Of a stretch of 64,000 nt of DNA, positions 2,724-58,956 are shown one piece after another. Every line of letters begins with the position of its first letter. The stretch's first letter is position 1. The DNA is from an uncultured bacterium. Its GTDB lineage: Bacteria; Verrucomicrobiota; Lentisphaeria; Victivallales; UBA1829. Below the pieces are notes generated by a model. That model saw only the letters and a list, made by a program, of their open reading frames with translations. It ran no database searches and was not told the DNA's origin. Position numbers and translations under genes: made by a program. The stretch is from positions 355-64,354 of the forward strand of contig CACWOL010000004.1 of assembly GCA_902762495.1 (NCBI GenBank), given 5' to 3'.

Positions 2724-2880
2724 ACAAAAAAGAACCCGGCAAATCCTGAATGAAAGGATCGCCGGGCCCCGTATACTGTTCAAAAGAACGGAAGATTATT
2801 TCTGCACGTTCTTCATGGCAGTTTCGTCGTCTTCGGGAGCATAGAACTCGATGTTGATGCTCATGCCGCCACCCATGCCA
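2724..2880 (-). repeat. Distal copy of the DUF3237 gene 3' end plus terminator (direct repeat of ~4275-4430)
   Basis: Encodes the identical MSINIEFYAPEDDETAMKNVQK-stop, followed by the same CCCGG..ATCC/GGAT..CCGGG hairpin and U-tract. Confidence 0.95.
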
Positions 2881-3299
2881 CCCATCTTGGGGTAGTCTCC
2901 GATATTGCCGGGGACGCCGCCTGAGGGATGATTGCAGGCAAAAACAATAGCCTGATCAAGAAGATTGAATACAATATCGGGCTCCGTACTATGATTAAAC
3001 GTTACGCCGACCCAATCCGGGCCAAACATCCGGATTGGGAAAGACAAATATGGCTTTCCAAGTTCAAGGATAGACTGTTGCCCACACCTAATGTCGCATC
3101 GCTCAATATCCATGCCAGCTTCCATGTCCCATTGTCGCATCAGTAACGCAATCCATTCGTTTGTTCGAGCATTTGAATAAGACAATATATCGCCTCTGAA
3201 TAAATCATTATGCTTCTCAAGGATATTATATTTCTCTTTTGCATATGCTGTAAAATCCGATAGTTTCATTGTTTTTCTCCATTCGTTGGAAATCTTCAA
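2796..3299 (-). CDS. MmcQ/YjbR-like protein fused in frame to the duplicated DUF3237-gene tail (chimeric ORF)
   Basis: YAKEKYNI..WIALLMRQWD..ERCDIRCG..DWVGVTF..IVFNLLDQA resembles YjbR/MmcQ; AT-rich; the last 22 aa are identical to the 4345-5274 protein. Confidence 0.6.
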   Translation of the reverse strand: MKISNEWRKTMKLSDFTAYAKEKYNILEKHNDLFRGDILSYSNARTNEWIALLMRQWDMEAGMDIERCDIRCGQQSILELGKPYLSFPIRMFGPDWVGVTFNHSTEPDIVFNLLDQAIVFACNHPSGGVPGNIGDYPKMGGMGGGMSINIEFYAPEDDETAMKNVQK

Positions 3300-3338
3300 T
3301 CGAATTCAAATAAAATATCTTTCCAACTTTTTTTCTTG

Positions 3339-4136
3339 TCAAAAACCATTTGGCGCCTTATTCCCGAAATCGTCTCTAAACTTCTGATCTTCTTTCAGGA
3401 GGCGCTTGCGGATATCTTTTAGAACTTCAGGAATGCCCTGTGGGAAATCGGACGCGACAGGGGCACCCCAGTAATGCATTTTAAGAACCATCGCTTCCAG
3501 GCCATCCATGGCCAGTTCATGACCTTGTTCAGCCGCCATTTTAAGCCACTTGACGGCCTCTTCATAATCTTGCTTGACACCTCTACCTTCCCAACAGCAC
3601 CCACCAAATGACCATTGCCCGTCGGCATTGCCCTGTTCCGCCGACTTTCTGTACCACTTGGCGCACTTGATATTGTCCTGTTCGACGCCTTGGTAATACT
3701 CATAACACCAGCCAAGTCGCCATTGTGCTTGGGCGTGGTCCTGTTCCGCAGCCTTATAGAGCCACTTAACAGCCTCATCATATTCTTCTTCTTGATAAAG
3801 GTATTCGCCCAGTTGGTATTGAGCCTCGGCATACCCCTTTTCCGCGGACTTACGAAGAAATTCGAGAGCCTCGTCCCAGTCCATATACTCCTCAAAAGTA
3901 GAGAGTTCGTACATAGCCTTTGCACTACCGGCATCTGCTGCAAGCTTAAACCATTTGAAGGCTTCTTCTTCATCTTGTTCCACCCCATAGCCCAATCGGT
4001 AACACATTGCGAGCGTCATCTGGGACTCGATGTGCCCATTTTCGGCGGCCTTACGAATAGCAGGAAGCATGTGGAGAAGCTGGTTTAAGTCAAACGTATC
4101 ATCTTTTTTTTTCATTAGGGTGTTGTTCCATGACAA
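3339..4136 (-). CDS. Sel1-like repeat (TPR) protein
   Basis: Repeated GVEQDxxEAxKWyxKAAEQGxAxAQ motifs; AAAGGAACC upstream of a TTG start. Confidence 0.9.
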   Translation of the reverse strand: MSWNNTLMKKKDDTFDLNQLLHMLPAIRKAAENGHIESQMTLAMCYRLGYGVEQDEEEAFKWFKLAADAGSAKAMYELSTFEEYMDWDEALEFLRKSAEKGYAEAQYQLGEYLYQEEEYDEAVKWLYKAAEQDHAQAQWRLGWCYEYYQGVEQDNIKCAKWYRKSAEQGNADGQWSFGGCCWEGRGVKQDYEEAVKWLKMAAEQGHELAMDGLEAMVLKMHYWGAPVASDFPQGIPEVLKDIRKRLLKEDQKFRDDFGNKAPNGF

Positions 4137-4190
4137 GGTTCCTTTTTGGGGGACTGAGGGGAAACGGGGAATATAACATATAAACGGTTT

Positions 4191-4218
4191 ACTATACCCC
4201 CCTTTTTAAGAATGTCAA
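4191..4218 (-). promoter_or_regulatory. sigma70 promoter driving the islet cargo (Sel1, MmcQ-like)
   Basis: TTGACA-16 nt-TATAGT on the minus strand. Confidence 0.6.
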
Positions 4219-4275
4219 GCTTTTTAGAACGACAAAGGGGTATTACTTTATAAATACCTCTCTTTTATCAACGCA

Positions 4276-4318
4276 CAAAAAGGACCCGGAAATCCTAAAT
4301 GAAAGGATCGCCGGGTCC
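4276..4318 (-). terminator. Rho-independent terminator of the DUF3237 gene
   Basis: GGACCCGG...CCGGGTCC stem followed by TTTTT on the minus strand. Confidence 0.75.
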
Positions 4319-4344
4319 AGTATATCGTTCAGAGGAACGGAGGA

Positions 4345-5274
4345 TTATTTCTGCACATTCTTCATGGCAGTCTCGTCATCTTCGGGAGCATAGAACTCAA
4401 TGTTGATGCTCATGCCCATACCGCCGCCCATGCCGCCGGCAGGACGATTGCCGCCAGCCGCGGGAGCCGCGCCACCGGCGGGAGCATTACCGGCAGGAGC
4501 CGCACCGGGAGCACCGGCAGGAGCACCGCCTCCGAAGCCGGGAAAACCGCCCATGCCGCCGCCCATCGGGGGCATACCGCCGCCGAAGCCGCCCATGCCG
4601 CCGCCGAAGCCGCCGAATCCGGCAGGAGCGCCGCCGGCAGGAGCGTTACCCGCGGGAGCCGCACCGGAAGGAGCGCCGGCAGCAGGCGCTGGAGCCCGAT
4701 TCGGAGCAGGAGCGCCGCCGGGAGCTCCGCCCCCGAAGCCCGGGAAGCCGCCCATGCCGCCGCCCATCGGGGACATACCGCCGCCAAAGCCGCCCATGCC
4801 GCCGCCGAAACCGCCCATAGCGATCCGGGCTTCCCAGTCGGTGGTTTCGAGCCAGCGGAGTTTCGGATTGTCGGTCAGGACGTACGGCTTGAGCACACCG
4901 TTCACCTGGCTGTTGTCGATGAAGATCTTGGTCGGGGTGCCGTCGGCGTCCTTGCCAACGAGGATGTAACGCGCGGAGATCGAGCCGCTGCGCTGCGTAT
5001 CGACCGCGCCGGGCTGGATCTCGCCCTTGAAGAACGTGGTGTCGAGGTCGCCGTGGAAGAGGATCATGTTGGCGCTGCCTTTGCCGCCCTGCACGTTGAA
5101 CATCTGGTCCAGGACCACGTGTATCTGGAAGACTTTCTTGCGTGCGACCTGTTTGGCGGCGGCGTTCGCGCCGGCCGTGGGCCGGGCGTTCTGGGCGCTC
5201 ACGATCATGGGGACGCCGACCAGGGTTGCGCACACGGCCGTGGCCGTGGCGGCATACAGGATGCTTTTCTTCAT
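4345..5274 (-). CDS. Secreted DUF3237-like protein with a long Gly/Phe/Met/Ala/Pro low-complexity insertion
   Basis: Signal peptide MKKSILYAATATAVCA...VSA-QN; VFQIHV..MILFHG..FKGEIQPGAVDTQ..SARYIL beta-barrel motifs; GGMGGFGGG repeats. Confidence 0.7.
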   Translation of the reverse strand: MKKSILYAATATAVCATLVGVPMIVSAQNARPTAGANAAAKQVARKKVFQIHVVLDQMFNVQGGKGSANMILFHGDLDTTFFKGEIQPGAVDTQRSGSISARYILVGKDADGTPTKIFIDNSQVNGVLKPYVLTDNPKLRWLETTDWEARIAMGGFGGGMGGFGGGMSPMGGGMGGFPGFGGGAPGGAPAPNRAPAPAAGAPSGAAPAGNAPAGGAPAGFGGFGGGMGGFGGGMPPMGGGMGGFPGFGGGAPAGAPGAAPAGNAPAGGAAPAAGGNRPAGGMGGGMGMSINIEFYAPEDDETAMKNVQK

Positions 5275-5324
5275 TTCTGAAACCTTTCTTCTTAAGGTTA
5301 AATGGATTTGCTCCCACCGTCTTT

Positions 5325-5804
5325 TCAGGTGCGGAAGCCGTAAATAAAAAGATAGAACATGAATTCTAGGACATCGCGCAAATCTTCCGCGCCCTTCACT
5401 GCCAGCTCGGGGATGCCGTTGCAGTTGCCGTTCGAGTAGAACTCCGCGATACGGCCGTTCTGCCGGATCGACCACTTCGGGAAGCCGTTTCCGTTGCCGT
5501 TGTCGTAGATGGCGACATAACGGCCTTTGAACTCGAAATAATAGATCGGGAAGCCGTTTCCATTGCCGTTCGGGTAAAACTCCGTACCGCGCGAACCGTA
5601 CTTGAAATACCCGACGGGGATGCCGTTGCAGTTGCCATTCGGGTAAACCTCGCAGGCGCGGGACGATTTCTTCATCGACCAGAACGGCATGCCGTTGCAG
5701 TTGCCGTTGTCATAGACGACCAGATAGCCGCGCTGGCTGGTCATGGAGGCGTACGGCATGCCGTTGCAGTTGCCGCTCTTGTAGGCGCAGATCATGGAAC
5801 TCAT
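5325..5804 (-). CDS. Hypothetical protein with six 23-aa Yx(N/S)GN(C/G)NGxP repeats
   Basis: Exact 23-aa periodicity; host-like codon usage. Confidence 0.8.
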   Translation of the reverse strand: MSSMICAYKSGNCNGMPYASMTSQRGYLVVYDNGNCNGMPFWSMKKSSRACEVYPNGNCNGIPVGYFKYGSRGTEFYPNGNGNGFPIYYFEFKGRYVAIYDNGNGNGFPKWSIRQNGRIAEFYSNGNCNGIPELAVKGAEDLRDVLEFMFYLFIYGFRT

Positions 5805-5906
5805 GGGAACCCCGGGGCGAAGGAAATCGGAGGATTTGCGGGATGCGGCGGAGCGGCCGGATTCGAATTCGGACCGCCCCGCCCGGAATGGTGAACTGAA
5901 CTCAGA

Positions 5907-6926: not shown

Positions 6927-7216
6927 TCTAAGGAATCTCCTTGACTGAGTTTTTTGGATGGTTCAGCGCACGGGGACGCAGTCGACGAACTCATGCGCGT
7001 TGTTTGTTTGAACGTGGGGACGCGCGAAAACCGCAGGCGCATATCCCATGCGTCCGCGAGCCGTGCGCGTTACCTAACCATAATGTATCACAAAAAACGA
7101 AAACTGAAAGTGCAAAACACATTTTTTTCGTCTTTTTTTGCCTTTTTTTCGTTTCATGCTTGATTTTTCGCCTCATCGGGTGTAAAGTATATTCTGTAAT
7201 CCAGTTTATTTGGAGT

Positions 7217-7299: not shown

Positions 7300-7452
7300 T
7301 TTTTTGTTTTAAAGGGGCGGATCACACATCCTGCGCTTGAGCGGAGCCAGACACACCGCAAGCGGTGTTGATTCAGTGCGCGGCTGTGCTCGCGCACATA
7401 TACCGTCGCGAAGCCTGGCCCGCAGCAGAGAACTTGTCCCATTTCCTGTGTC

Positions 7453-9020: not shown

Positions 9021-10253
9021 ATGGCTGTTTTCAGACCCTTCCACGCCCTCATGCCCCGTCCGGCCGAAGTCGCGCAGGTGGCCGCCGTCCCCTACGACGT
9101 CGTAAACACCGCCGAAGCGGCGAAGCTCGCCGACGGCAATCCGCTGACATTCCTCCGCGTCTCCCGCCCCGAGATCGAACTCCCCGCGGGCACGGACATC
9201 CATTCCGACGCCGTGTACGACAAGGCGCTCGCGAACTTCAAACGCCTCTGCGCGGCGGCCCCCCTCGCCCACGACCCCGAGGCGAACCTCTACGTCTATG
9301 CGCTCACCATGGACGGCCGCACGCAGATCGGCATCGCGGGCACCGCTTCCGCCGCCGAATACGATTCCGGCGTCATCAAGAAGCACGAGACCACGCGCCG
9401 CGACAAGGAGGACGACCGCGCCCGCCACGTCATGACGCTCCGTTCGCAGACCGGCCCGGTCTTCCTGACCTACCGCGACGTCCCGGCAATCGACGCCCTC
9501 GTCGCCGACATCATCAAAGAGAAACCGTTCTTCTCGTTCACTGCCGCGGACGGCATCAGGCACGAACTTTGGAAGGCCGGTGACAAGAGCGTCGCGCTCG
9601 CCCGCCTCTTCGCGGACGCCGTGCCGTGCTTCTACATCGCCGACGGCCACCACCGCGCCGCATCCGCCGCCCGCGCCGCCAGGACCTGCCGCGCCGCGAA
9701 CCCGGCCCACACCGGCGACGAGGAGTACAACTACTTCCTCGCCGTGGCGTTCCCCGCCAACCAGCTCCGCATCCTCCCGTACAACCGCGCGGTGAAGGAC
9801 CTGAACGGCCTCACGGAAGCGGAATTCCTCGCGAAGATCGCCGACGCAGGCTTCGAAGTTGCGGAAACCGCGACGAAGTCGCCCGACCGCTCCGGCACGT
9901 TCCGCATGTACCTCGGCGGGAAATGGTACGCGCTCACGCCGAAGTTCTCCTTGGACGGGCTCTCCGTGACCGCCTGCCTCGACGTCAGCATCCTGCAGGA
10001 CCGCGTGCTCGGCCCGATCCTCGGCATCGACGATCCGCGCACAAACGCCCGCATCGACTTCATCGGCGGCATCCGCGGCACGGGCGAACTCGAGCGTCTC
10101 TGCGCCGAGGGCCTCGCCGCCGTCTGCTTCTCCATGTATCCGACCACGCTCGACCAGCTGATGGCGATCGCCGACGCCGGTTCCATCATGCCCCCGAAAT
10201 CCACCTGGTTCGAACCGAAGCTCCGCGACGGCCTCGTGTCCCACGATTTCTGA
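9021..10253 (+). CDS. DUF1015 family protein
   Basis: PYDVV, KKHETTR, YIADGHHR and MPPKSTWFEPKLRDGL motifs. Confidence 0.9.
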   Translation: MAVFRPFHALMPRPAEVAQVAAVPYDVVNTAEAAKLADGNPLTFLRVSRPEIELPAGTDIHSDAVYDKALANFKRLCAAAPLAHDPEANLYVYALTMDGRTQIGIAGTASAAEYDSGVIKKHETTRRDKEDDRARHVMTLRSQTGPVFLTYRDVPAIDALVADIIKEKPFFSFTAADGIRHELWKAGDKSVALARLFADAVPCFYIADGHHRAASAARAARTCRAANPAHTGDEEYNYFLAVAFPANQLRILPYNRAVKDLNGLTEAEFLAKIADAGFEVAETATKSPDRSGTFRMYLGGKWYALTPKFSLDGLSVTACLDVSILQDRVLGPILGIDDPRTNARIDFIGGIRGTGELERLCAEGLAAVCFSMYPTTLDQLMAIADAGSIMPPKSTWFEPKLRDGLVSHDF

Positions 10254-17074: not shown

Positions 17075-18046
17075 ATGAAGACGACAGCTTCTTTCCCCTC
17101 GAAGGCCGCGCATCTCTGCGTGTGCACGGCCCTGCTCGGACTCGCCGTCCCGCTGGCCGCGCATCCCGCCGGAGACCACCTGCCCGAAGTCGAGGGAGCC
17201 GTCACGCTCCTGACGCCCGATCAGGTCAAAGACGCCCCGTTCCTGCCGGACGCGAAGAACAATCCGCTGTTCCTCAAGTACGAGGACATGCTCGCCAAAC
17301 TCGAGGCGAAGCACATCAAATTGAACGTGCGTTCGCTGGCGGTCTTCGGCGAGGGATTCCTGATGAACTCGTCCGCCTCGCCCGCGACCGTGCGCTACAT
17401 CCTGAAATACAAGCTCCTCGGCGAAGAATACACCTGGACCGAGACCGGAGACGCGGATCATCCGGCATTCAATCTGACCGTCCCCGACGGCGGTTCCTTC
17501 CGCATCACCTTCCCCGCGAAGGACTGGCTGCTGTGCGCGGCGAACCGGCCGCCCGAGCCCGCGGACGATCCGTCCGAAGCGAAGCAGCCGGAAAATAAAG
17601 AGAAAATGTCCGCCGTTTCCGCCGCGTCCCTGCTCAAATCCCTGCCGGACGACGTCGCGATGGCGTATGTCTGGCCGGAACCCGGCGCCACGCCGGAATA
17701 CCCCCTGATGGGCGAGCTCAAAAGCATCTCGTTCCACATCGTCCGCGACGCGAAGGACAAGCGCCCGGTCCATGCGGAACTCGTCATGCCCGCGAAAACC
17801 GCCGACGCCGCGCTGAAGATTCAGCGGGCATGCCAGGACACGTTCGATCAGGTCTACGGCGAGGCGGCGAAACTCGGCAAAATCCCGCCCGAACTCGTCA
17901 ACGCGTTCACGGTCGCGCGCGACGACGACAAAGTCACGATCCGCATCGCCCTCCCCGACGACATGGCGAAATACTTCTTCACGACGTTCGCCGCCGCGCT
18001 TCAGGAGGAGGTCAAACCGTTCGCCGTCCCGGACAAGCTCAAGTAA
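17075..18046 (+). CDS. Secreted hypothetical protein
   Basis: Signal-peptide-like N-terminus; host codon bias; its last 63 nt are duplicated at 19001-19063. Confidence 0.75.
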   Translation: MKTTASFPSKAAHLCVCTALLGLAVPLAAHPAGDHLPEVEGAVTLLTPDQVKDAPFLPDAKNNPLFLKYEDMLAKLEAKHIKLNVRSLAVFGEGFLMNSSASPATVRYILKYKLLGEEYTWTETGDADHPAFNLTVPDGGSFRITFPAKDWLLCAANRPPEPADDPSEAKQPENKEKMSAVSAASLLKSLPDDVAMAYVWPEPGATPEYPLMGELKSISFHIVRDAKDKRPVHAELVMPAKTADAALKIQRACQDTFDQVYGEAAKLGKIPPELVNAFTVARDDDKVTIRIALPDDMAKYFFTTFAAALQEEVKPFAVPDKLK

Positions 18047-18125
18047 TCCCGACGCAGGCGGAATGCCGTGCCATTTATGACGGCCCGTCCGTTTTTCGCA
18101 ACTCGCTGATTTTTTTTTATTTAGC

Positions 18126-18153
18126 TTGACTTTACCCGTTTTTGTGATATAGT
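18126..18153 (+). promoter_or_regulatory. sigma70 promoter (related copy at ~19147-19178)
   Basis: TTGACT-16 nt-TATAGT; the TTAGCTTGACTTT..CCCGTT..TTGTGATA context recurs before 19216. Confidence 0.6.
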
Positions 18154-18200
18154 ACAACAAACAAAACAATCGCACAAGGATTTCAGGATCGGATTCGGGC

Positions 18201-18989
18201 ATGAACACAAATGAAACAGTACCGCCGACCATCGGCAAAGTCAGCGCGGATTATGTGTGCTTCCTATTCCGGTGTGATGTCACACCGGTCATAAAGATGA
18301 TATGGACCGCGGTGGTGATGCAGATCATCTTTTTCAGTCCGATTTTGGTGTCGATTCTGGGCGCATTCCAGTTCCCGCAGGTACCGATTCTGCAGAACAT
18401 ATTTTTTCTCATCGCGCCGCCGATCCTGGTCTCACTCGTATTTCCGTTCATCCCGGGCATCATTGTCCGCAGAAGACTCATGAATGACGTGATCCCCGCG
18501 TGCAGGAATTCCTGCTCCGAAAAAGAGATCGTTTCCGGTGCATTTCAATGCCTGCGGTTCATGTGGGGTCGTTACATCCTGTGTCTGCTGCCCGCCATCC
18601 TTGCCATCCTCGGAAGCATAGTCTACCTCTGTGCGGCGTGGCCTTTTAAAACCCCTTTTATCCTGCTGCTCGTTCCGGTTTTTCTTATCTTTCTGCTGGG
18701 GGAATGCGCTCTGGCGGTCTTCCCCGTCGCACGGATATTCAGCAGGAGAGCCGGCATGGTCGTCATGTTTCCGTTCATCATTCCGGGGCAGATCGTCATG
18801 ATACTGGATTGCCTCATCGGAGCATCCGGGTTTCTCTATTTCACGGACGGAGATGTACCGATACGGGAATATACCAACGCGACCATCATCATCCTTGCGG
18901 TCTGCGCCGCGCTGTTCGGCGGCGCACTTGCGTATTTCATCCATGCCGCGAAAAAAGATTCCGAAGGATGCTGGATGACGGACTTCTAA
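18201..18989 (+). CDS. Multi-pass membrane protein, paralog 1
   Basis: About 6 TM helices; shares MNTNET, KMIWxAVV.Q, PGII.RR, VIP.C.N.C..KEIV.GA, VFPVAR.F.R and YFIHAAK.D.E with 19216-20136. Confidence 0.8.
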   Translation: MNTNETVPPTIGKVSADYVCFLFRCDVTPVIKMIWTAVVMQIIFFSPILVSILGAFQFPQVPILQNIFFLIAPPILVSLVFPFIPGIIVRRRLMNDVIPACRNSCSEKEIVSGAFQCLRFMWGRYILCLLPAILAILGSIVYLCAAWPFKTPFILLLVPVFLIFLLGECALAVFPVARIFSRRAGMVVMFPFIIPGQIVMILDCLIGASGFLYFTDGDVPIREYTNATIIILAVCAALFGGALAYFIHAAKKDSEGCWMTDF

Positions 18990-19000
18990 AACGAATTTGT

Positions 19001-19063
19001 ACGTTCGCGACCGCGCTTCAGGAGGAGGTCAGACCGTTCGCCGTCCCGGACAAGCTCAAATAA
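19001..19063 (+). repeat. Orphan copy of the 3' end of gene 17075-18046
   Basis: 59/63 nt identical to 17984-18046. Confidence 0.95.
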
Positions 19064-19215
19064 CGATCCCGATGCAGGGCGTATCCGCGGGATTCGGGAC
19101 GATTCCGTCTTTTTTGTTGCAAGTCACTGTTTTTTTTTGATTTAGCTTGACTTTGCCCGTTACTTGTGATACTTTATAACAAAACATCATAAAGAACAGG
19201 GAAAAGGAACTCCGC

Positions 19216-20136
19216 ATGAACACGAATGAAACGAGCGACTCACGGCAGACCGTCGCTCCGGACTCTTCCGCCGCATCGTCGAAGCCCCCTCTTTATATCG
19301 GCTCGGAACATGAGTACGTGTACTCCATTTTCCGGCAGAACGCTCCGATCTTGAAGATGATCTGGATCGCGGTGGTGATACAGCTCCTCCTGATCCCCAT
19401 CGTCTGTATCATGCCCTATCCCTGGGCAGGGACCGCAAAAATTGTATTCGGGCCCCAGGCAGACAGTTTCGCCAAAGCGTTGAAAGAGCTTCCTCCTAAC
19501 CTGTATATCCCGCTTGCGCTCGCATCCCCGGTTTCTTTCATCGCCCTCCTCGCGATCCCGTACGTTCCGGGCATCATCCTGCGCAGGCATTTCAGGGATG
19601 CCGTGATCCCGATGTGCGGGAATACCTGTCCCGGAAAGGAGATCGTCCGCGGCGCGATGCGGAGTCTGCATTACATGCTAGTCCGTTACGTTCCGGTCCT
19701 GATTCCCGGGATCCTCGTTTACCTCGTGCCTGTCGTTTTCACGCTGGTCTTTTTCTTCAATTTTTTTTCCAATGCTCAGAACTCCGACGGCGAGCGTCTG
19801 ATCATACATGGCAGTTTTTCCGTCATCTTATGGATGTATCTTCTGTCGCTCCCGGGCTGGCTTCTGAGCGAGTACGCCCTGACAGTCTTCCCCGTCGCGC
19901 GGCTGTTCACGCGGCTGTCCGGCGCGGTCCGGCCCGGCATGTTCCTGATGCTGTCGCTGATCTATCTGGCGCGGATCGTATACGTCCTGAATCCCGTCTT
20001 CACGGCGGACAAAACCGCATTCCTTAACATCGCTATCATTGCGGTCTGCACCGCGCTTTCCGTCGGCGCGATCGTGTATTTCATCCATGCCGCAAAAACC
20101 GACGCGGAAAAATGGGGACAGAGAGACGAGGGCTGA
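19216..20136 (+). CDS. Multi-pass membrane protein, paralog 2
   Basis: Shares the motifs listed for paralog 1; AAAAGGAAC RBS. Confidence 0.8.
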   Translation: MNTNETSDSRQTVAPDSSAASSKPPLYIGSEHEYVYSIFRQNAPILKMIWIAVVIQLLLIPIVCIMPYPWAGTAKIVFGPQADSFAKALKELPPNLYIPLALASPVSFIALLAIPYVPGIILRRHFRDAVIPMCGNTCPGKEIVRGAMRSLHYMLVRYVPVLIPGILVYLVPVVFTLVFFFNFFSNAQNSDGERLIIHGSFSVILWMYLLSLPGWLLSEYALTVFPVARLFTRLSGAVRPGMFLMLSLIYLARIVYVLNPVFTADKTAFLNIAIIAVCTALSVGAIVYFIHAAKTDAEKWGQRDEG

Positions 20137-47700: not shown

Positions 47701-49162
47701 TGCCTCCGACGGACTCAATGAGCGCAGGGTCCGCGCCCTTGCGTTCGATGGCCTCGAAGACCTCCTGCGCGCGCTTCTTTTCCACGATGGCGGCATCGAT
47801 CATCTTGCCGTTGATGTCCAGCGCCGCGCCGGTCACGGTGGCTCCTGCGGGCAGAGGCAGCGTGAATTCGCCTTCCAGCGCGAGCGGGTTCGGATTGCTC
47901 ACGACCGCCTCGAACTCCGTGCTGGCGATCTCGCCGCGGATGCGGACTTTCGCCGAGACCTCGGACACGACGACCGGGACCAGTTTCGGGTCGGCCGGAC
48001 GCGGCGGAGGCAGGATGCGGATCGGGGGCAGGATCACGCGCGGTTCGACGAACGGACGCGGACGGAGATACAGGTCTTGCGTTTCATTCATGGTTCTTGC
48101 TCCTTTTGTTCCTCCCGCGGCCGCAAGTGCCTGCGTCGCGGCAATTTTCATCTGGGGTGCGGATTCTTCCTTTGCAGCTGCACCCGGTTCGGAATTCGTA
48201 TCGGCAACGGCATTTTCCGGCTGAATCGTTCTGGCACGCGCATCACGAGCGGGAGCAGCGCCACCGCCGAAACCGCCGCCGAAGCCGCCAGCGGGAGCAG
48301 CACCGCCACCGAAACCGCCACCGAAACCACCGAAGCCACCGGCAGGACGATTACCTCTAGCAACACCGCCACCAAAGCCGCCGAAGCCGCCAGCGGGAGC
48401 AGCACCGCCACCGAAACCACCGAAGCCACCGGCAGGACGATTACCTCCAGCAGCACCGCCGCCCATCGGAGGCAGACCGCCGCCGAAGCCGCCCATACCG
48501 CCGGCAGGACGATTGTCTCCGGCAGGAGCAGCATCGCCTGCGGGAGCGGCACCGGCAACAGCCCCGCCGTCGGCAGGAACAACACCCCCGACGAAGGCAT
48601 CAGCAGCAGGAGCAGCGGCCTCGTCAGGTTCGGGATCGACAACGGCCATTCGGCGCGCATTCACTGCGGGCGCGACATTATCTTCGCGCGCCAAAGCCAT
48701 AGAAGCGGCGACCATCCCGCCGTCAAGCGATGCGCTTGCCTCCGCAGATTCCCTGTTATCCAGCATGGACATAAGGACCACCGATTCCGGCTCATTTTCT
48801 GTCGCTTTCGCTTTCATCAGGTTCGCGCCGTATGCGGCAGGAGTCTGCGCTTCAACGACCGTGTCGACGCCCGGCATGCCGTAGTTGTCGCTGCGGATCG
48901 CGGACGAATCGTCCTTCAGCGTGGTGAGCACGAGCTGGAAGGCCAGGAGGCAGACCGCGACGCCTGCCGCGGCCTTCCAGATCATGGGGAAATGAGGGCG
49001 TTCCTGCGCCTTCGCCGCCGCGAAGAAACGGTGTGTGAATTCGTCTTCCGGTGTGTAGATGCCGGACTGTTCGCGGACGTCGTGGCGCTCCTTCAGCTTC
49101 TGGAGCAGAGCGTCCAGGTCGCGCGCGCCGTTTTCGTTGCTGTCGGTGTTATGCTTCTTCAT
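44792..49162 (-). CDS. Large fusion: anti-sigma-like N-terminus/TM, Gly-rich linker, VIT domain, vWA-like domain, TPR, DUF2135-like domain, LysM
   Basis: VIT (NPNPLALEGEFTLPLPAGATVTG..A.IVEK), WDASGS/DGGT/FTDG (vWA MIDAS-like), TPR (APEEPQSYRDLA), WDTD..DMDLH..DITQGYGPEEF, and YQVRANETL..IA (LysM-like). Confidence 0.8.
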   Translation of the reverse strand: MKKHNTDSNENGARDLDALLQKLKERHDVREQSGIYTPEDEFTHRFFAAAKAQERPHFPMIWKAAAGVAVCLLAFQLVLTTLKDDSSAIRSDNYGMPGVDTVVEAQTPAAYGANLMKAKATENEPESVVLMSMLDNRESAEASASLDGGMVAASMALAREDNVAPAVNARRMAVVDPEPDEAAAPAADAFVGGVVPADGGAVAGAAPAGDAAPAGDNRPAGGMGGFGGGLPPMGGGAAGGNRPAGGFGGFGGGAAPAGGFGGFGGGVARGNRPAGGFGGFGGGFGGGAAPAGGFGGGFGGGAAPARDARARTIQPENAVADTNSEPGAAAKEESAPQMKIAATQALAAAGGTKGARTMNETQDLYLRPRPFVEPRVILPPIRILPPPRPADPKLVPVVVSEVSAKVRIRGEIASTEFEAVVSNPNPLALEGEFTLPLPAGATVTGAALDINGKMIDAAIVEKKRAQEVFEAIERKGADPALIESVGGNSYRTRIYPIPARGSRRIRITFISEVDRVDGTPIFTLPMRFENELEKASIRVEVMDPAAAPQVESAPFANLNFERWENALLGERTLENIALPEDLRITVADKPAPVQTERFGGENFFLVSATISAATNAADFKTPKSVSVLWDASGSRASNDHAPELELLKQFFASDKMKGATVDVNVSVLRNTLEPAKTFTVKNGDASALLDFLKKTACDGGTDFLGLEKFLAAVPADACAFVFTDGIQTFGKGAENIPAAKGRTAFVSVSTTSETSYLEYLADASGANALYLNLARMTPAAALASFLAGNPAALESVKIDGADADYEVSRSGEAVRIAGTFPDGKHKLEVKIAGLPAMAFDLDSAAAVDGRMIRTLYGMLKLEKAKRNPKTTPSEFLTLGQTYGLVTPGTSMLVLESLSQYLEYSIRPPETLPEWRAQYDERQAQIAKDKAKEKADAATEQDKRIDQLAKRYQSEIIDWYDGKKRPDPVFKCGFGGGGGIRPMNAAGGMGGFGGAAGGAAPGIGGFGGGFGGGAARRERASRDMEDGMAMDAMPVMEMAVEADASFERAPSAKKSDSSSNGASKSIKLNQWTSGASYLKELEDAKDKAQERYLELRAKKENADNLGFFVDCADYFARNGQREFAIRVVSNLAEMQLENRMLLRVLGYNLKYLGELDAAETVFRKVLELAPEEPQSYRDLALVFADAGRWQEAADMMLNAIVKKPDGRFRDVELIAITELNNFIVKAKRAGIELKDIDSRLVHPLEMDLRVTIGWDTDMSDMDLHTIDPTGEECFYQHRLTTNGGRNSFDITQGYGPEEFMVRNAMNGDYRIKTHYYGQRAQKMIGPVTLYAEIVTDFGRPEEKSETLMFRLATRDEMVDVATVTTKGSKVTPKEPERRYPPKNPVVDDRPVGGFGGGAAPDVSRMYQVRANETLEDIAESQLGDRSRAQEIARENADKLRDGQPVTGSIITLPPRNR

Positions 49163-53470: not shown

Positions 53471-53616
53471 TCTGCGAACCTTTCGTGGGGGATGCCCGTT
53501 ATTTTATAATTATGGAATTGAATTTTCACAGCATTGAATATACACCATTTTTCCCGTTCTTCAACCGCGCGCGCCATTTTTCCTCAAATTTCCCCCGTTT
53601 TCTCCCAAAAAGGAAG

Positions 53617-53657
53617 CGCCGGACCCGGTTTCATTCGGATCCGGCACATTTGATGTC
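53617..53657 (-). repeat. Terminator-like hairpin; direct-repeat partner of 58899-58942
   Basis: CGCCGGACCCG..TCGGATCCGGC is present at both sites, each downstream of a minus-strand gene. Confidence 0.75.
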
Positions 53658-53690
53658 CTCTGTGGATGGGTGTCAACAAAACACCGTTTT

Positions 53691-56462
53691 TCACACGATG
53701 TGCGATCCCTCGAAGATGCGTTCCGAGGTAAAGTCGAGGAAGGCTCCGATAGAGGACAGTGCGGCGAATTGGGCGGAACCGTCGTCGCCGAATTTGAGCG
53801 TGATCTGTTCTGCCGCGACGCCGGAGACCTTGACGCTGTTGTCGCCGTCCATATAGGTCAGCGTTTCTGCATTCCAGTTCGCTTCACTGCCGGATGCGAA
53901 CCACAGCGTGACGGTGCCTGACACGAGCTGTTCCACATTATCCACGCCCCAATTATCGCAGAAGGTGAAGACATCCTCACCACCGCCACCGTGCAAGCGG
54001 TCATTTCCAATGCCACCGGCGATCACATCATTGCCGGATGCACCGACAATGCGGTCGTTTCCAGCATCACCGAACAGGAAATTGTCGCCCTTGTTTGCCC
54101 AGATGGTATCGTTGCCTTCACCACCTCGAATCGTCAGACCTTCGCCGATGTACTCGAACCGTTGACTGGTCATGTCTACGATGTCGGCACCTGCACCAGC
54201 TCTGATTTCGTCAATTTGAGCGATACGCGACTGTTTCTCTGCAACATTCCCTGGAGACGCCGTGTAAATATCGTCCACGAATAACGTATCGCCGTTGTCA
54301 TCATCCGTCATGAGCAGGATGTTCGCATCGGTCGAGCCTTCGATGATGTCCGCAAGCTTGTTCTTGCCGGAAACAGAGGCATACTCGTTCGTTCCAGCCC
54401 AATCGTTGATAGATCCGACGTGCTGCGCCAGATAACCAGATTCCCAAGTGCCGACAGCATTGGCGAAGAATACATCCGCATTACCGTCTGCATCGGACTT
54501 GATGAGTTGCGGTTTAATGTCGCTCTCGGGAGCAACGATTGGATCGCCAGTCATCCATTCACTGCTGCCATCCTGCTTAACGCGCATTTGATATGTGCCA
54601 GTCGGCATACGGAAGGCATCAAGCGAGGGTGTCGTGACCGCGAATGTGATTACATGCTCGAAGTTGTCCGGACTGTATTCGACAGTGTACGGCTTGAAGC
54701 CAGAGACAGTAAACGCATCTCCAGTTGTCACTGCGGATTCATTGCCTGCGAAGTCCACCGCCTGCACACTCCAGCTGTAGGATCCGAAGTCAGCGTTGTT
54801 CAGCACATAATTCGTGTTGCTCGTCCTGACGGAGAACACCAGATCATTGATCAAATAGGTCACGACGTACTCCTTGACTCCGGACTGATTGTCCGTGCTT
54901 CCATTCCAGAGCAACGCGACATCCTGTCCTTCGACAAACGCCCTAACACCTGCCGGATCACTTGGGGCGACCTTGTCAATATTGGAAACTGTGTAGCTGA
55001 CGACCTCGGATTCATTCCCAGATGTATCTACAGCCTTGAAATAGACGGTTCCGTTTTCCCTCACGGTCACACCATCCACATATGCGGACCACTCGCCAGC
55101 CTCGCCGAGCTTGAACAGGGATTGTGCCAGTTCAACGTCATCGGCGAAATCCGCCGTCAGCACGACATCCTGATTCGTCAGTGTGGTTGTGCTCGCTTGA
55201 ACATTCGACACTGTCGGAGCTGTAGTATCCGGCGGTATGGGCCCTGCGACACTCAAAAAGAGGGTTTCATCGCAAATCTGCAACGTGTAAGTGTCTTCGC
55301 CTACTTCAAACGATTCCCCGACTTTGAGCGTACCAAGGGATTTCCCCGTTGTATTCTTTACCGTAATCGTACCGTCGAATTCAGACGCTGCATCTGCAAG
55401 CCTGTAGATGCCCGTTTCCTGATTGTCTTTGACTGCAATCGTGTAGTCCGGTGTCCCCTGAATCAGCGACCAGTCACTCAACAACGCTTTTTTTTCTTCA
55501 TCACTCTGTGTTAAGTCAAAAACAATAAGCGCCCCATCTTCGACCGTACATAAAGCTCCATTTTCGATATTAATCTTTCCTGTAATTATTCCACCAGCAA
55601 AGATTTTTACAGTGCCACCAATGGATACAACGAGATTATTAAGCAAACCTCCAGAAGAAACAAAAACTTGTCCACTATGTTTTATCTTAGTTTCATTCGC
55701 TACTCCACCACTAAAAACATATATGTTTCCACCGGAGTTTGCAGTTATATCATTCCCTGTTGTTGAGGAGTGAATAGTTGTAATAGCATCAGAGATGGAT
55801 AAATCAGAAAAAGTATTAGAGAGAAAAGAACATGTTCCTCCTTCTTGGATATCAACAGCTCCACCATTTTCGACAAAAGATTCCCCTTTTCCCCTTTTAT
55901 TTATCCTAATACGGCCACCAGCATTGACAAGGACATGATTCGCAACGCCATCATTTATCCACATGCTTCCGCCATTGTTTATTACAGTATTATTTGCTGT
56001 TCCCAACTCAATTTGAACGCTCCCACCGGAGTTAACTATGGTACTATCTGCTATTCCACCCCAGATATCAAACAAACCATTTTTATATATTTCTGTGTTA
56101 GTAGCAGTTCCACCGGAATAAACGTGAAATCCGCCCTTACTGTTGATAATTGTACTATCCGCAACTCCCCCAGAAATGCCAACCCAACCACTACTGTTGA
56201 GAATAGTTCGAGTCAACTGCCCACCAAAAACATGAATAGAACCAGAGTTAGCTATGGTATTATTTACAACACCACCAGAAGAAATAAGCATACGGCCTTT
56301 TGAAAGCGTAGTGCTATTCACAGCACCTCCGGAAGAGACAAACATATCACCACTTTTGATTGTAGTAGACAGGGCTATTCCTCCGTCAAGAACAGTCATT
56401 GTATCATTTTCAAGAATAATTCCGCTACTGACTTCGCCATTGGGAACAATGTATTCAGCCAT
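53691..56462 (-). CDS. AIDA-like repeat beta-helix protein with Ig/Fn3-like domains and RTX-like Ca-binding repeats (probable T1SS-secreted surface protein)
   Basis: SSGGxANSTTVNSGG-type repeats; DTTAPTV..AVDTSGNES..IDKVAP; GGEGNDTI/GDAGNDRI/GGIGNDRL nonapeptides; no signal peptide. Confidence 0.8.
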   Translation of the reverse strand: MAEYIVPNGEVSSGIILENDTMTVLDGGIALSTTIKSGDMFVSSGGAVNSTTLSKGRMLISSGGVVNNTIANSGSIHVFGGQLTRTILNSSGWVGISGGVADSTIINSKGGFHVYSGGTATNTEIYKNGLFDIWGGIADSTIVNSGGSVQIELGTANNTVINNGGSMWINDGVANHVLVNAGGRIRINKRGKGESFVENGGAVDIQEGGTCSFLSNTFSDLSISDAITTIHSSTTGNDITANSGGNIYVFSGGVANETKIKHSGQVFVSSGGLLNNLVVSIGGTVKIFAGGIITGKINIENGALCTVEDGALIVFDLTQSDEEKKALLSDWSLIQGTPDYTIAVKDNQETGIYRLADAASEFDGTITVKNTTGKSLGTLKVGESFEVGEDTYTLQICDETLFLSVAGPIPPDTTAPTVSNVQASTTTLTNQDVVLTADFADDVELAQSLFKLGEAGEWSAYVDGVTVRENGTVYFKAVDTSGNESEVVSYTVSNIDKVAPSDPAGVRAFVEGQDVALLWNGSTDNQSGVKEYVVTYLINDLVFSVRTSNTNYVLNNADFGSYSWSVQAVDFAGNESAVTTGDAFTVSGFKPYTVEYSPDNFEHVITFAVTTPSLDAFRMPTGTYQMRVKQDGSSEWMTGDPIVAPESDIKPQLIKSDADGNADVFFANAVGTWESGYLAQHVGSINDWAGTNEYASVSGKNKLADIIEGSTDANILLMTDDDNGDTLFVDDIYTASPGNVAEKQSRIAQIDEIRAGAGADIVDMTSQRFEYIGEGLTIRGGEGNDTIWANKGDNFLFGDAGNDRIVGASGNDVIAGGIGNDRLHGGGGEDVFTFCDNWGVDNVEQLVSGTVTLWFASGSEANWNAETLTYMDGDNSVKVSGVAAEQITLKFGDDGSAQFAALSSIGAFLDFTSERIFEGSHIV

Positions 56463-56531
56463 TTTGAATTCACCATTTGTTATCTGTTATTGTTCATTTG
56501 AATTCGGAAAGAATTCGTCGTTTGCAAGTCC

Positions 56532-57140
56532 TTATCGAATCAAATCACATAACGACAAATGTTCCCCATCTGTCGTCTTTCTTATAAAAGCCTGTTCTGG
56601 AGTTATATTGCTTACTGGTCGTGTATAAGGAATATCTTCTGAAATTGGCGGCATAACCGCATCGTGTAAAACAACAAAGTATCTTCTATAATCGTTGCCT
56701 AAAATATAACATCGATGGAAACGAGCAAGAATTGCATGAAGAAAATCCAACAAACAGGAACTGCTTCTTAGCTGTGATACATAGTCTTCATAATTGTCCC
56801 CCTCCATTTGCGGAGTTGTTGCTACCGCTGATTGAGAATGTACAGAGGATTTTAGTTCAACAAAAACAGCAACCTTGTTGCCTTCAAATTCCGATAATAG
56901 GATATAGTCGCACTGCACGCCCCCATATCCACTAGTAAAGTATTTCATTTTTGTTTTATCCGGTTTTAGTGCCAGATAATTTGGTGTCAAATCAGAAACA
57001 AATACCCTTCTTAAAGTCGCATGTTCTCCTCGCTCTTCCAAAACAAAAGAATCAGAAGAATAATTTCTTTTTACACTATCCAAAAGGACTTTATTCAGCA
57101 AAGATATTTCTTTTGCTGTTGGCTTGATATTACTCGCCAT
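56532..57140 (-). CDS. Hypothetical protein with a PD-(D/E)XK-like motif
   Basis: CDYILL..VFVELKS..SQL; AAAGGAGG RBS inside the ATPase 3' end; AT-rich. Confidence 0.6.
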   Translation of the reverse strand: MASNIKPTAKEISLLNKVLLDSVKRNYSSDSFVLEERGEHATLRRVFVSDLTPNYLALKPDKTKMKYFTSGYGGVQCDYILLSEFEGNKVAVFVELKSSVHSQSAVATTPQMEGDNYEDYVSQLRSSSCLLDFLHAILARFHRCYILGNDYRRYFVVLHDAVMPPISEDIPYTRPVSNITPEQAFIRKTTDGEHLSLCDLIR

Positions 57141-58482
57141 AAAGGATCCTCCTTTGAAGCGCGTTGACCTCGCGAATAGATTCGTCAAAACTAGTAACTT
57201 CAATGCCATATTTTTGATTGATATCCATTTGCTTTACTGTACCATCTTCAGCGATATAGCATTTGACTTTTTTGGGGGATAGCAGACAATTAAGATGTTT
57301 TTTATCATAGCCCAGTTCTTTTACAATATTCTTTAACCGGGGCGATTTGGCATTGTTTAACATGATCAAAGTGTTAAGTTCGCGGATAATATAATCGCTA
57401 TGAGTTGTAACAGCGACATAAATATCTGCATTCACCAGCATTGCTAGCAGTCGTGCGATTTTTCTTTGATTTTCAGGATGCAAATTCAGCTCAGGCTCGT
57501 CAATGACTAAGCATTGGGCATATTTGGATTTGTGTTTCAAATAAAAGTTAAGTTCCATTAAAGAACGTACCGAACTAGAACTTTCCAACATTGTCAATCC
57601 TGTATTTGTACCAAATGGAACAAATGTTACAATGTTGGGTTCTACTAGACGATACTCGCCTCCAACAATACTAGCAAAATATTCTAATATTTCTGGGTGT
57701 TTTTTTGCTATATACCCTTTTTCTTGAATTGCTTCATCAAAGCGGCATACGAATTCCAAATCCTTGTTCATTGGGCGGGGATGTCCGCGAAAGTCCATTT
57801 TTTGATACAATTCTTCTATTTTCTGATCAACATTTTCCTGTTTTGAAGAAACAGATCTTGAAACAACAAAATCAGTGCGAAACGCCGCTGCACCCGTCCG
57901 TTCACAGGTTATAATAAACAATTCAGGAATTGCAGTTTTCAAAACAGCAATCAAAGAGTTCGTTAAAACTTGTGTTATTACATCTTGATTCGGCAATTCA
58001 TGAGCGTTGTTGTACAATGAAACATCTAAGTATTTTTTTTCTTTTTCCTTAATAACATTTATTGTACAATCCTTTAATGCAGGAATATTCCAATTGAAAT
58101 GGACATATTTCATGACAGCATTTTGGCGTTTCTTTTCGACATGCAAAGAAAGCTTTGTGTTTTTGTATAAATCTTCATGAGCCGCCATTTGTCTTGCCAT
58201 TTCATTTTTTATCCAAGGCGCCATAGATGATTCAATGTATTGATTAATATTGCTTAAAAATGGCTCAAGGGGGATGCTAATCTTCCCTTTTTCCAGAAGC
58301 TGTTCCGCATATTGATTATCCATGGGAACTTTCAAGTAGTAATGAATAGCATCAATATAGTTAAACGCATTATAGGTTATATATGTTTTTCCTGTATTGT
58401 TTTTTCCGCACAAAATAGTCAAATCACCGAATTCTAATTCGGCATTTTTGATTAAACCGGCATTTTGAATTGTAAATTTCAT
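57130..58482 (-). CDS. ABC-fold (AAA_15/AAA_21-like) ATPase
   Basis: Walker A CGKNNTGKT, degenerate signature SSSSV, Walker B/D-loop VIDEPELNLHP, H-loop TTHS; AAGGAG RBS; AT-rich. Confidence 0.9.
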   Translation of the reverse strand: MKFTIQNAGLIKNAELEFGDLTILCGKNNTGKTYITYNAFNYIDAIHYYLKVPMDNQYAEQLLEKGKISIPLEPFLSNINQYIESSMAPWIKNEMARQMAAHEDLYKNTKLSLHVEKKRQNAVMKYVHFNWNIPALKDCTINVIKEKEKKYLDVSLYNNAHELPNQDVITQVLTNSLIAVLKTAIPELFIITCERTGAAAFRTDFVVSRSVSSKQENVDQKIEELYQKMDFRGHPRPMNKDLEFVCRFDEAIQEKGYIAKKHPEILEYFASIVGGEYRLVEPNIVTFVPFGTNTGLTMLESSSSVRSLMELNFYLKHKSKYAQCLVIDEPELNLHPENQRKIARLLAMLVNADIYVAVTTHSDYIIRELNTLIMLNNAKSPRLKNIVKELGYDKKHLNCLLSPKKVKCYIAEDGTVKQMDINQKYGIEVTSFDESIREVNALQRRILYGE

Positions 58483-58603
58483 ATAAAAAACTCCTTGGTA
58501 TATCAAAAAGAAATCAGGCGTTGTGTGCACAATTTTTTAAATAAAACGGCAAAAATGAACTTGGCATGAGGAAACATGAAGGATAAATATGGTCCCAGTC
58601 GCT

Positions 58604-58632
58604 AATATACCCCCCTTCCCAGGAAAAATCAA
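58604..58632 (-). promoter_or_regulatory. sigma70 promoter upstream of the ATPase operon
   Basis: TTGATT-17 nt-TATATT on the minus strand. Confidence 0.55.
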
Positions 58633-58892
58633 ATGGTTTTTCTGTTTTTTTAATCTTTTTCAGCTTTTTATAGTGGGAAAGGACGCGATGCGTCCCCGCT
58701 TCGCCGGGGGCGGCTTTGCCGCCTCGGTAGCCTCGCTTACGCTCGGCGACTTTTTTAGATTACTGCTGAGGCGCGAGAGGCGGAGCCTCCGCTGCGGAAG
58801 TGTTCTGCTATGCGAGAACACGAAGACCGCGGAGCGGATTATGCAATCAGGGCAGGCGCAGGCAGACGGTCTGGCGGAGGCAGAATCCGAGC

Positions 58893-58930
58893 AGAAAACG
58901 CCGGACCCGAGTTTTGTCGGATCCGGCGCG
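58893..58930 (-). terminator. Terminator of the GH43 gene
   Basis: CGCCGGATCCGA-CAAAAC-TCGGGTCCGGCG-TTTT on the minus strand. Confidence 0.75.
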
Positions 58931-58956
58931 ATTGATCATGTCGTCAGGTATGGAGA

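Follow-up and report, generated by a model that had tools for sequence, protein, structure and literature searches.

How do accessory genes come to lie directly behind core genes, followed on their far side by a second copy of the core gene's 3' end or terminator, in a stretch of DNA without an integrase? The question arises from three loci in a 64,000-nt window (the whole stretch analysed) on contig CACWOL010000004.1 of a rumen bacterium of an uncultured lineage. A preliminary description had claimed this layout for the three loci, a process that recurs and the local absence of integrases, and had named empty sites and swapped cargo in relatives as its trace. All of this was borne out. The three islets are low in G+C and each has a second, diverged copy of the 3' end or terminator. 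The same layout was found at six loci of the genome: loci 1, 2 and 3 of the window, valS (contig C55), C15 and C42. Within the genus each of the six is polymorphic, being empty in some genomes and filled with other cargo in others, and profile searches with PF00589, PF00239 and PF01797 gave no match on the window's contig. (G-numbers denote same-genus genomes, G000 being the study genome, C-numbers contigs and X-numbers metagenomes.) The islets are a recurring recombination scar known from other bacteria rather than a new type of mobile element.

The direct repeats measure 143 nt at locus 1, 63-172 nt at locus 2, about 30-44 nt at locus 3, 105 nt at valS, 48 nt at C15 and 39 nt at C42. The cargo of loci 1, 2 and 3 has a G+C content of 42-50%, 50-53% and 32-52%, respectively (most flanking genes: about 60-67%), and promoter-like sites precede it in the orientation of the host gene. 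The host gene is uninterrupted, and it is always the distal repeat copy that adjoins the native flank downstream. The repeat edge is a terminator T-run or a stop codon, where conserved synteny stops; the inner boundary differs from locus to locus. In relatives with an empty site the two repeats align to one and the same copy, so that the flank alignments overlap by 153 nt (locus 1, G008), 190 nt (locus 2), 41 and 31 nt (locus 3, G012 and G003), 103 nt (valS, G004), 41-45 nt (C15; G003, G012, G004 and G005) and 39 nt (C42, G009). Both forms occur together in one metagenome (X5), and the structures are backed by contigs of other metagenomes. Insertion, duplication, empty sites and turnover of cargo are demonstrated by these comparisons. 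No other copies of the repeats occur in the genome, except for a third, partial tail on C3. A comparison of all six revealed no common motif or core, the best similarity between loci being 10-12 nt with an E value of 0.02 or worse.

At locus 1 the host gene (4345..5274, minus strand, within an ORF at 4345..5475) encodes a secreted Gly/Met-rich protein with the C-terminal end MSINIEFYAPEDDETAMKNVQK, and its orthologues P0012 and P0013 have the same tail. Its start was placed by inference at the signal peptide MKKSILY of the translation. The tail and terminator attached to the gene (copy A, 4274..4416) recur as copy B (2725..2867), which is contiguous with the native downstream flank. This repeat extends from the terminator T-run into the 29 final codons of the host gene; its 143 nt are 87% identical (141 nt and 90% by BLAST). 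The cargo consists of a gene for a Sel1-repeat protein (3339..4136, minus strand; Pfam Sel1, 2.4e-35), preceded by a promoter-like TTGACA-16-TATAGT at 4218-4191, and a 167-aa ORF (2796..3299, minus strand) that ends in the duplicated host tail, 29 residues fused in frame. Close homologues of this ORF keep a decayed relic of the tail, which is absent from distant ones, and the cargo is also present elsewhere, on C6 of G004, with a 51-nt relic of the host tail. The single copy of G011 is 91.6% identical to copy A and 90.2% to copy B, the two copies being 86.7% identical to each other; at the 19 sites where they differ, G011 agrees with A at 10 and with B at 8, and these sites are interleaved. 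No inverted repeats bracket the locus. The cargo continues into copy A in X5 and into the start of copy A in X2, and X1, which may be the source sample, bridges 2475-4453.

The host gene of locus 2 (17075..18046, plus strand) encodes a secreted 323-aa protein without a Pfam family. Repeat copy 1 (17984..18161) comprises its last 63 nt, the terminator region and a promoter (TTGACT-16-TATAGT at 18126-18153), and copy 2 (19001..19183) is a displaced host tail with a copy of the promoter. Gene 1 (18201..18989, plus strand), the extra allele, encodes a 262-aa polytopic membrane protein; it is found in G003 and G011 and was not found at the same site in G004, G009, G012 and G013. Gene 2 (19216..20136, plus strand) encodes a 306-aa paralogue and is the orthologue of the gene in single-copy relatives. 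G015 has a hybrid gene here, and G014 and G001 have neither. Divergence is uneven: the 63-nt tail repeat (17984-18046 / 19001-19063) is 94% identical, the repeat extended across terminator and promoter (172 nt) 81%, the promoter region ~80%, and the proteins share 32% of their amino acids with many gaps. A simple tandem duplication was rejected on these figures. Together with the G015 hybrid, they are what is expected from recombination between divergent alleles of one slot. On this comparison locus 2 consists of two divergent alleles stacked behind a conserved tail and promoter; the earlier reading as capture of foreign cargo gives way to allele stacking of a membrane-protein gene. Inverted repeats bracketing the islet were not found at locus 2. 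A single record of X3 covers the whole of it (17397-20118), and the contigs of X1 break at its repeats.

Displaced orphan modules, which locus 2 resembles, are known also from CDI and Rhs loci. In the Vibrio Aux1 T6SS modules (PMC9711863) a new allele has been added after an upstream part that is conserved, and downstream the old allele or gene end persists; the stacked divergent alleles of locus 2 and the G015 hybrid match this pattern. Locus 2 differs in that what it retains is the end of another gene, the one lying upstream.

At locus 3 a GH43-family glycoside hydrolase gene (58957..61113, minus strand; Pfam) is followed by a terminator hairpin (58893..58936), of which a distal copy (53611..53654) lies beside the native flank on the purB side. 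The two are 77% identical over 44 nt or, alternatively, 83% over 29 nt, a repeat that is weak alone because its genome-wide E value is only about 0.03. A single terminator hairpin stands between the same flanks in five same-genus genomes (G012, G003, G009, G005 and G011). The cargo comprises an AAA_15 ATPase of the PD-T4-4 A defence type (57130..58530, minus strand; Pfam; PADLOC, 2.7e-111 for PD-T4-4_A and 4e-119 for PDC-M47A), its partner of the PDC-M47B / PD-T4-4 B type (56532..57209, minus strand; weak PADLOC match, 9.2e-9 and 1e-5) and a 923-aa AIDA / RTX-repeat adhesin-like protein (53691..56462, minus strand; Pfam), whose gene has a 3' half of about 52% G+C, and it is this half that has many paralogues in the genus. 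The islet border carries one unpaired copy of a genus-specific GC-rich repeat of ~105 nt (58677..58780, plus strand; nhmmer 3.3e-26, and alignment), with promoter-like TTGATT / TATATT on its cargo side. The preliminary description had missed this repeat, and its claim that terminal inverted repeats are lacking stands for loci 1 and 2; at locus 3 one copy, not a pair, of this multi-copy repeat is present.

Outside the window, at valS, the sites of G004, G009 and G003 are empty; G000, G012 and G010 have shared ends, different cargo and repeats of 103, 152 and 92 nt, and cargo turns over here inside one old insertion. The structure of C42 is also present in G012 and G004. At C15 both copies have a substitution in common that was seen in 0/8 relatives. 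The islets C8 and C42b have no flanking repeat of the kind found at loci 1-3, and C8 has no target duplication. Nor was the proposed genome-wide enrichment detected: in a crude test for flanking repeats of at least 35 bits, 6/296 low-GC islets and 17/888 controls scored, no excess, the test being insensitive because loci 1 and 3 escaped it.

The phenomenon has a precedent. Nobusato et al. reportedly described 'insertion with long target duplication' of restriction-modification genes in 2000, and the question of its mechanism dates from then. It is in print in the survey of Furuta, Abe and Kobayashi (2010; PMC2853133), and the islets match the pattern given there: an insert of deviant G+C content and without mobility gene is present in one genome and missing from a close relative, and is flanked by a direct repeat of >30 bp and variable length that has one copy in the empty genome and in some cases overlaps the 3' end of a gene. 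Locus 3, with 29-44 nt, is borderline in repeat length. Pfam and PADLOC scans of the islets revealed a Sel1 protein, membrane proteins, the PD-T4-4 defence pair, an adhesin and small ORFs and no restriction-modification genes, in contrast to the published cases; such cargo is what defined that survey, not the mechanism. The repeats here have also diverged further (77-95%), several events are old and saw later turnover of their cargo, and the present cases give a first view of Lentisphaerota. Behind core genes, accessory genes and among them an anti-phage system enter and turn over without integrases or transposases, and the scar left by their entry is recognisable. It could be searched for systematically. 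Young events might well be caught in a genus which, like this one, has many polymorphic sites.

How the DNA was joined and by which route it entered we infer from these arrangements. The best explanation, to which we give roughly even credence, combines one homologous exchange within the core gene with one illegitimate joint, the islets being later maintained and swapped by recombination among congeners. Each locus would be a slot of variable content immediately behind its core gene. Accessory DNA would enter by homologous exchange within that gene and an illegitimate or short-homology joint, either through a single crossover of a circularised fragment carrying the gene's end or through the equivalent homology-facilitated illegitimate recombination (HFIR) of a linear fragment. 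The incoming DNA would supply a complete gene end. With a joint lying a few dozen to about 150 bases before the end of the resident gene, that end would be displaced downstream as a non-functional second copy and would then decay. A dedicated recombinase would be unnecessary, and islets once formed could be inherited, swapped, stacked and lost within the genus through ordinary homologous recombination. Of the two routes suggested earlier, a RecA-type single crossover or HFIR survives in the form of a homology-dependent event with one illegitimate joint, whereas a trans-acting site-specific recombinase is disfavoured by six repeats that have no common core, range from 39 to 172 nt and are not identical. 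Nor need gene tails be landing pads, since the duplicated end may be a mere leftover of the joint.

HFIR and single-crossover insertion-duplication were reportedly described by de Vries and Wackernagel (2002) and Prudhomme (2002). Like the islets, such events have one homologous anchor and one illegitimate joint, and single crossover of a truncated circle duplicated the anchor over 109-950 bp in experiments with E. coli, the diagnostic PCR product being obtained in 56/60 clones, of which 14 were sequenced (PMC3240628). They are laboratory events with known donors, whereas for the islets a donor, a homologous tract, microhomology at the joint and recA dependence are postulated. It counts against the model that HFIR experiments usually delete recipient DNA instead of duplicating it (PMC3240628), as does the negative outcome of the crude enrichment test. 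In Vibrio, HFIR has been put forward for displaced orphan genes (PMC9711863), and most cases of long target duplication come from competent species (PMC2853133). A search for competence genes had been proposed; ComEC and DprA are present, but both occur in most bacteria, so that competence is conjectural.

Appreciably less probable than this homology-dependent entry, though the strongest of its rivals, is a genuine long target duplication formed in situ during insertion, with copies identical at first and diverging later, for example by replication template switching at a terminator hairpin or by fill-in of widely staggered nicks and ligation of a foreign fragment. The published cases have no settled mechanism (PMC2853133), and several repeats here terminate at a terminator hairpin. 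Copies A and B of locus 1 each look like descendants of an ancestor resembling G011, with private changes in about equal number, which fits in-situ duplication equally well and to that extent speaks against the crossover model, as does the private substitution common to both copies at C15. On the other hand, no Ku gene was found in the genome (94.7% complete), repeat length (39-172 nt) and position relative to the stop codon vary by locus, the divergent alleles of locus 2 are unexplained by template switching on one chromosome, and the ORF in the cargo of locus 1 already has a tail relic at another site. That the structures are chance similarities or assembly artefacts of a metagenome-assembled genome is most improbable. 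The weak repeat of locus 3 and the broken X1 contigs at locus 2 could be so explained, but other genomes show the same structures (G003 and G011 for locus 2, G012 and G004 for C42, G012 and G010 for valS), as do contigs of other studies, and repeats of 39-172 nt with 84-95% identity within 2 kb are unlikely by chance.

CIMEs and other integrase-less elements flanked by att sites lie at gene 3' ends between direct repeats. The islets share all three traits, and could be remnants or satellites of site-specific integrative elements, with attL and attR derived from the target 3' end and a recombinase encoded elsewhere. The arrangement is that of 3'-end integration, and the search for orphan recombinases did yield six tyrosine and two serine genes, none of them on the window's contig; one (C6, start about 26469) directly follows a partial GC-rich repeat. 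We nevertheless regard this origin as improbable: six different targets without common att core would each require a recombinase specificity of their own, the repeats are imperfect (77-95%) and variable in length, and no cognate integrative element was seen at the sites. No integrase lies beside any islet here or at the filled valS and C42 sites of relatives, whose ORFs were read non-systematically, and Pfam and PADLOC scans of the cargo found no mobility gene. Equally improbable are non-autonomous transposon-like cassettes bounded by inverted copies of the GC-rich repeat and moved in trans, the direct repeats being a by-product. This repeat is multi-copy in 13/15 same-genus genomes and was found in 0/25 genomes of other genera; 8/11 copies in G000 lie at a border of low and high G+C in fixed orientation, and inverted copies bracket the C8 and C55 islets on both sides. 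Yet it is missing from loci 1, 2, C15 and C42 and single at locus 3, the valS boundaries lie about 90 and 35 nt beyond it, C8 has no target duplication, and a genome search limited to Y1 transposases (PF01797) found only a 48-aa fragment. A MITE or transposon cassette with terminal inverted repeats at its boundaries was rejected on the evidence of loci 1, 2, 3 and valS.

Minimal mobile elements of Neisseria, reportedly described by Saunders and Snyder, are strain-specific cassettes in slots between conserved genes, swapped by homologous recombination in the flanks. The same behaviour is seen at valS and C8; unlike the Neisseria elements, some slots here have internal ends that are conserved (GC-rich repeat, promoter and leader RNA) as well as duplicated gene ends. 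It is conceivable, if rather unlikely, that the GC-rich inverted repeat, the promoter and a covarying leader RNA form a genus-specific portable cassette scaffold, whose entry behind core genes makes the long target duplications. Such a scaffold might, speculatively, be a non-autonomous element, or a platform for recombination, through which defence and accessory genes are recruited and exchanged at several sites of the chromosome. The leader, a structured RNA of ~230 nt without a match in Rfam, shows strong covariation.

The genome under study (G000; 2.76 Mb in 96 contigs, 59.5% GC; the window is C4:355-64354) was compared with 15 genomes of the same genus, whose conserved DNA is about 80-95% identical; its genes were called with a codon-model caller, and the calls are still imperfect. 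All three duplications that the preliminary description had seen in the window are present where it placed them. Locus 1 lies behind the gene of a secreted Gly/Met-rich protein and has a repeat (2725-2867 and 4274-4416) of 143 nt at 87% identity (BLAST aligns 141 nt at 90%). Its cargo is a gene for a Sel1-repeat protein and an ORF of 167 aa, the final 29 residues of which are an in-frame copy of the host tail. At locus 2 the host gene encodes a secreted 323-aa protein, the cargo is two polytopic membrane proteins, and the repeat (17984-18046 and 19001-19063) measures 63 nt at 94%, with homology reaching 172 nt at 81% through the terminator and the promoter. Locus 3, between a GH43 gene and purB, has a repeat (53611-53654 and 58893-58936) of 44 nt at 77%, or 29 nt at 83%, which is weak on its own (E about 0.03 against the whole genome). 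Its cargo comprises an adhesin-like gene of the AIDA/RTX kind, 923 aa long, and a defence pair of the PD-T4-4 type (A match 2.7e-111, B match weak). The GC content of the cargo is low (locus 1 42-50%, locus 2 50-53%, locus 3 32-52%; most flanking genes about 60-67%), and promoter-like sites oriented as the host gene lie upstream of it.

The adhesin-like gene looks chimeric: its 3' half (window 53704-54959) has a normal GC content of about 52% and matches of 70-85% at many sites in the genus, and in its 5' half GC is 38-40%. Low GC (50-53%) also marks the initial 2 kb of the window (1-2000), with a long coiled-coil-like ORF at 29-2554; this stretch may be another acquired block.

A BLAST comparison of G000 with itself yielded 117 pairs of direct repeats that lie 0.3-12 kb apart and match over 35 nt or more at 80% identity or better, 69 of them within genes on both sides. 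The remaining 48 rows held five loci with one copy on a stop codon and the other beyond inserted DNA: loci 1 and 2, valS on contig C55 (repeat 105 nt at 84%), a 421-aa host gene on C15 (48 nt at 87.5%) and a 333-aa host gene on C42 (39 nt at 95%). The layout therefore recurs in the genome, as had been proposed, but the expected excess of such repeats did not appear: 6 of 296 low-GC islets and 17 of 888 random spans had flanking repeats of at least 35 bits, in a crude test whose islet calling passed over loci 1 and 3 and which is therefore insensitive. Flanking repeats of the gene-end kind were not found at an islet on C8 or at a second islet on C42 (a 1.3-kb gene, 98% identical between G000 and G014). 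A third, partial locus 1 tail with part of the Gly-rich region (G000:C3:44964-45018) stops after ...FYAPE; the DNA joined to it is low in GC, the surroundings are non-genic, and the whole resembles a further scar of recombination.

The host gene is whole, and the distal copy invariably adjoins the native downstream flank without a break. Outwards, the repeat ends at a terminator T-run (locus 1, valS, locus 3) or at a stop codon (C15, C42); its inner boundary is variable.

Empty sites and exchanged cargo, as foreseen in the preliminary description, were found in relatives at loci 1 to 3. At locus 1, flank and host gene are adjacent in G008, whose single tail aligns to both copies with an overlap of 153 nt, and about 620 nt of different DNA fill the site in G011 and G004. 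The locus 1 cargo (2816-4220) lies elsewhere in G004, within a low-GC island and at 92% identity; it is without a flanking repeat there, but 51 nt of the host tail survive as a relic. A decayed remnant of the tail closes every close homologue of the cargo ORF (84-91%) and is missing from distant ones (46-50%); the ORF was therefore fused to the host tail long ago, and the cargo later moved with part of that tail. Metagenome contigs of set X5 run from the cargo into copy A (4274-4416, adjoining the host gene) and also show an alternative form in which 671 other letters replace the cargo; set X1 bridges 2475-4453 without a difference, but it is possibly the source sample itself and does not count as independent. 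Locus 3 is empty in G012, G003, G009, G005 and G011, with the flanks adjacent and one terminator hairpin between them. Tandem small hairpin repeats lie between the terminator and the GH43 stop codon at the empty sites G009:C24:39730-39910 and G011:C20:21220-21320, so this slot takes up REP-like elements too.

Locus 2 is spanned entirely by one X3 record (contigs of other metagenomes). Both of its genes are found in G003 and G011, gene 2 only in G004, G009, G012 and G013 (the two alignments overlapping by 190 nt), neither in G014 and G001, and a hybrid in G015. The tail is 94%, the promoter about 80% and the proteins only 32% identical, which excludes a plain tandem duplication; the locus is a stack of two divergent alleles of one slot. 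Such stacking resembles the orphan arrays at T6SS loci (PMC9711863) and those at CDI and Rhs loci. Four tandem paralogous genes at G000:C65:3656-7405 share a 53-nt block (89-96%) comprising the ribosome-binding site, the start codon and the start of the signal peptide, with differing bodies, a mirror image of the conserved ends of locus 2.

The valS, C15 and C42 loci are all polymorphic among congeners. The valS site is empty in G004 (103-nt overlap), G009 and G003; the C15 site in G003, G012, G004 and G005 (41-45 nt); and the C42 site in G009 (39 nt), being occupied in G012 and G004. In the 15 congeners searched, the C15 cargo was not found at its site, and elsewhere only paralogues of 68-73% occurred. 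The valS islets of G000, G012 and G010 have a common left end (97% and 88%), a common right end and different cargo; the repeats measure 103 nt (84%) in G000, 152 nt (90%) in G012 and 92 nt (94.6%) in G010. Between G000 and G012 the distal copies are only 82% alike, whereas the DNA on either side is 93-96% alike. By these comparisons valS is a single insertion of long standing, in which the cargo is replaced over time and the displaced end undergoes neutral decay.

A homologous exchange within the core gene, combined with one illegitimate joint, gives exactly the observed product, and we put the chance of such an origin at about even. A circularised fragment could enter by a single crossover, or homology-facilitated illegitimate recombination (HFIR) could place the joint within the recipient's gene end. 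For E. coli, PMC3240628 reports that single crossovers of truncated circles gave duplications of 109-950 bp (the diagnostic PCR was positive for 56 of 60 clones, and sequences were obtained for 14), whereas true HFIR is described there as usually deleting recipient DNA. The competence genes raised in the preliminary description are represented by ComEC and DprA; one reverse transcriptase is also present, and Ku was not found in the genome. Duplication of the target in situ fits as well. The locus 1 copies are closer to the single copy of G011 (copy A 91.6%; the distal copy B, 2725-2867, 90.2%) than to each other (86.7%); of the 19 sites that distinguish the two copies, G011 shares 10 with A and 8 with B, interleaved. 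The two C15 copies have one private substitution in common. The sites are too few for phylogenetic signal to part this from a two-lineage origin, and we consider in-situ duplication possible though unlikely.

A recombinase acting in trans, which had been entertained earlier, is improbable: no att motif is shared among the six repeats, which have nothing better than 10-12 nt in common, and this argues against one site-specific recombinase. The integrase noted as absent was indeed not detected, PF00589, PF00239 and PF01797 having no match on the window's contig. We also see little chance that the islets are transposon-like cassettes. Inverted copies of a GC-rich repeat of about 105 nt stand at both ends of the C8 and C55 islets; no inverted repeats were found bracketing loci 1 and 2, again as noted before.

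Insertion with long target duplication was reportedly described by Nobusato in 2000. As published (PMC2853133), such inserts lie between long, variable direct repeats exceeding 30 bp, for which the empty genome has one aligning copy. Mobility genes are absent; the cases concern restriction-modification genes and come from several phyla, and gene 3' ends are overlapped by some of the repeats. The pattern is thus already known, and the Lentisphaerota case is a further example at six loci. It shares the long variable repeats and the single copy in the empty genome; its cargo is of kinds other than restriction-modification, and its comparative support is good.

The GC-rich repeat has 11 copies in G000, eight of them at a border of low and high GC in fixed orientation. 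It is single at locus 3 (window 58677-58780) and further occurs at C8:45100-45369 and 47783-47887, C55:7805-7909 and 9089-9183, C16:903-1005, C27:2409-2516 and C22:9977-10222; a partial copy (C6:26237-26301) directly precedes a 472-aa tyrosine recombinase gene. At the valS and C8 sites the GC-rich-repeat ends are retained and the cargo varies by genome, so cassettes may be exchanged by means of the homology that these portable ends provide. Clean empty C8 sites were sought to fix the ends of the repeat, and every genome examined has the slot occupied. Its single-stranded folding z-scores are modest (-0.6 to -2.3), and we make no claim of an attC-like nature. An element of about 128 nt at L056:166-295 (G000:C42:2565-2694) has many copies in every same-genus genome, with about 20 in G010 among the matches listed, and is probably a repeat of the MITE or REP kind.

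Beside the GC-rich repeat lies an RNA of about 230 nt with a promoter-like site (TTGATT-16-TAAATT) and, at its end, a hairpin with a U-run. Repeat, promoter and leader together are multi-copy in 13 of the 15 same-genus genomes and a search of 25 genomes from other genera did not find them; the RNA is so far known from this genus alone. Rfam gave no match for it, none over locus 3 at E ≤1, and in six other islet stretches just two matches at chance level (E 0.8 and 0.94), which fell far short of their gathering scores. Copies lie at C8:45449-45694 (L029:1950-2195), C55:7980-8232, C16:578-835, C2:27004-27219, C51:2469-2648, C38:32006-32217, C69:3831-4052 and C3:53185-53330. The folding z-score is -4.83. 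Across 19 copies, pairing is kept in 97.4% of cells against 87.6% in shuffles. Compensatory changes occur in 23 of the 59 pairs; shuffles give 14.4 and slid controls 4-9, and none of 500 shuffles reached the observed value. The covariation is strong. Since the RNA stands upstream of islet cargo and giant adhesin-like genes, as well as of other genes, it is probably a regulatory leader and not part of a mobility machine.
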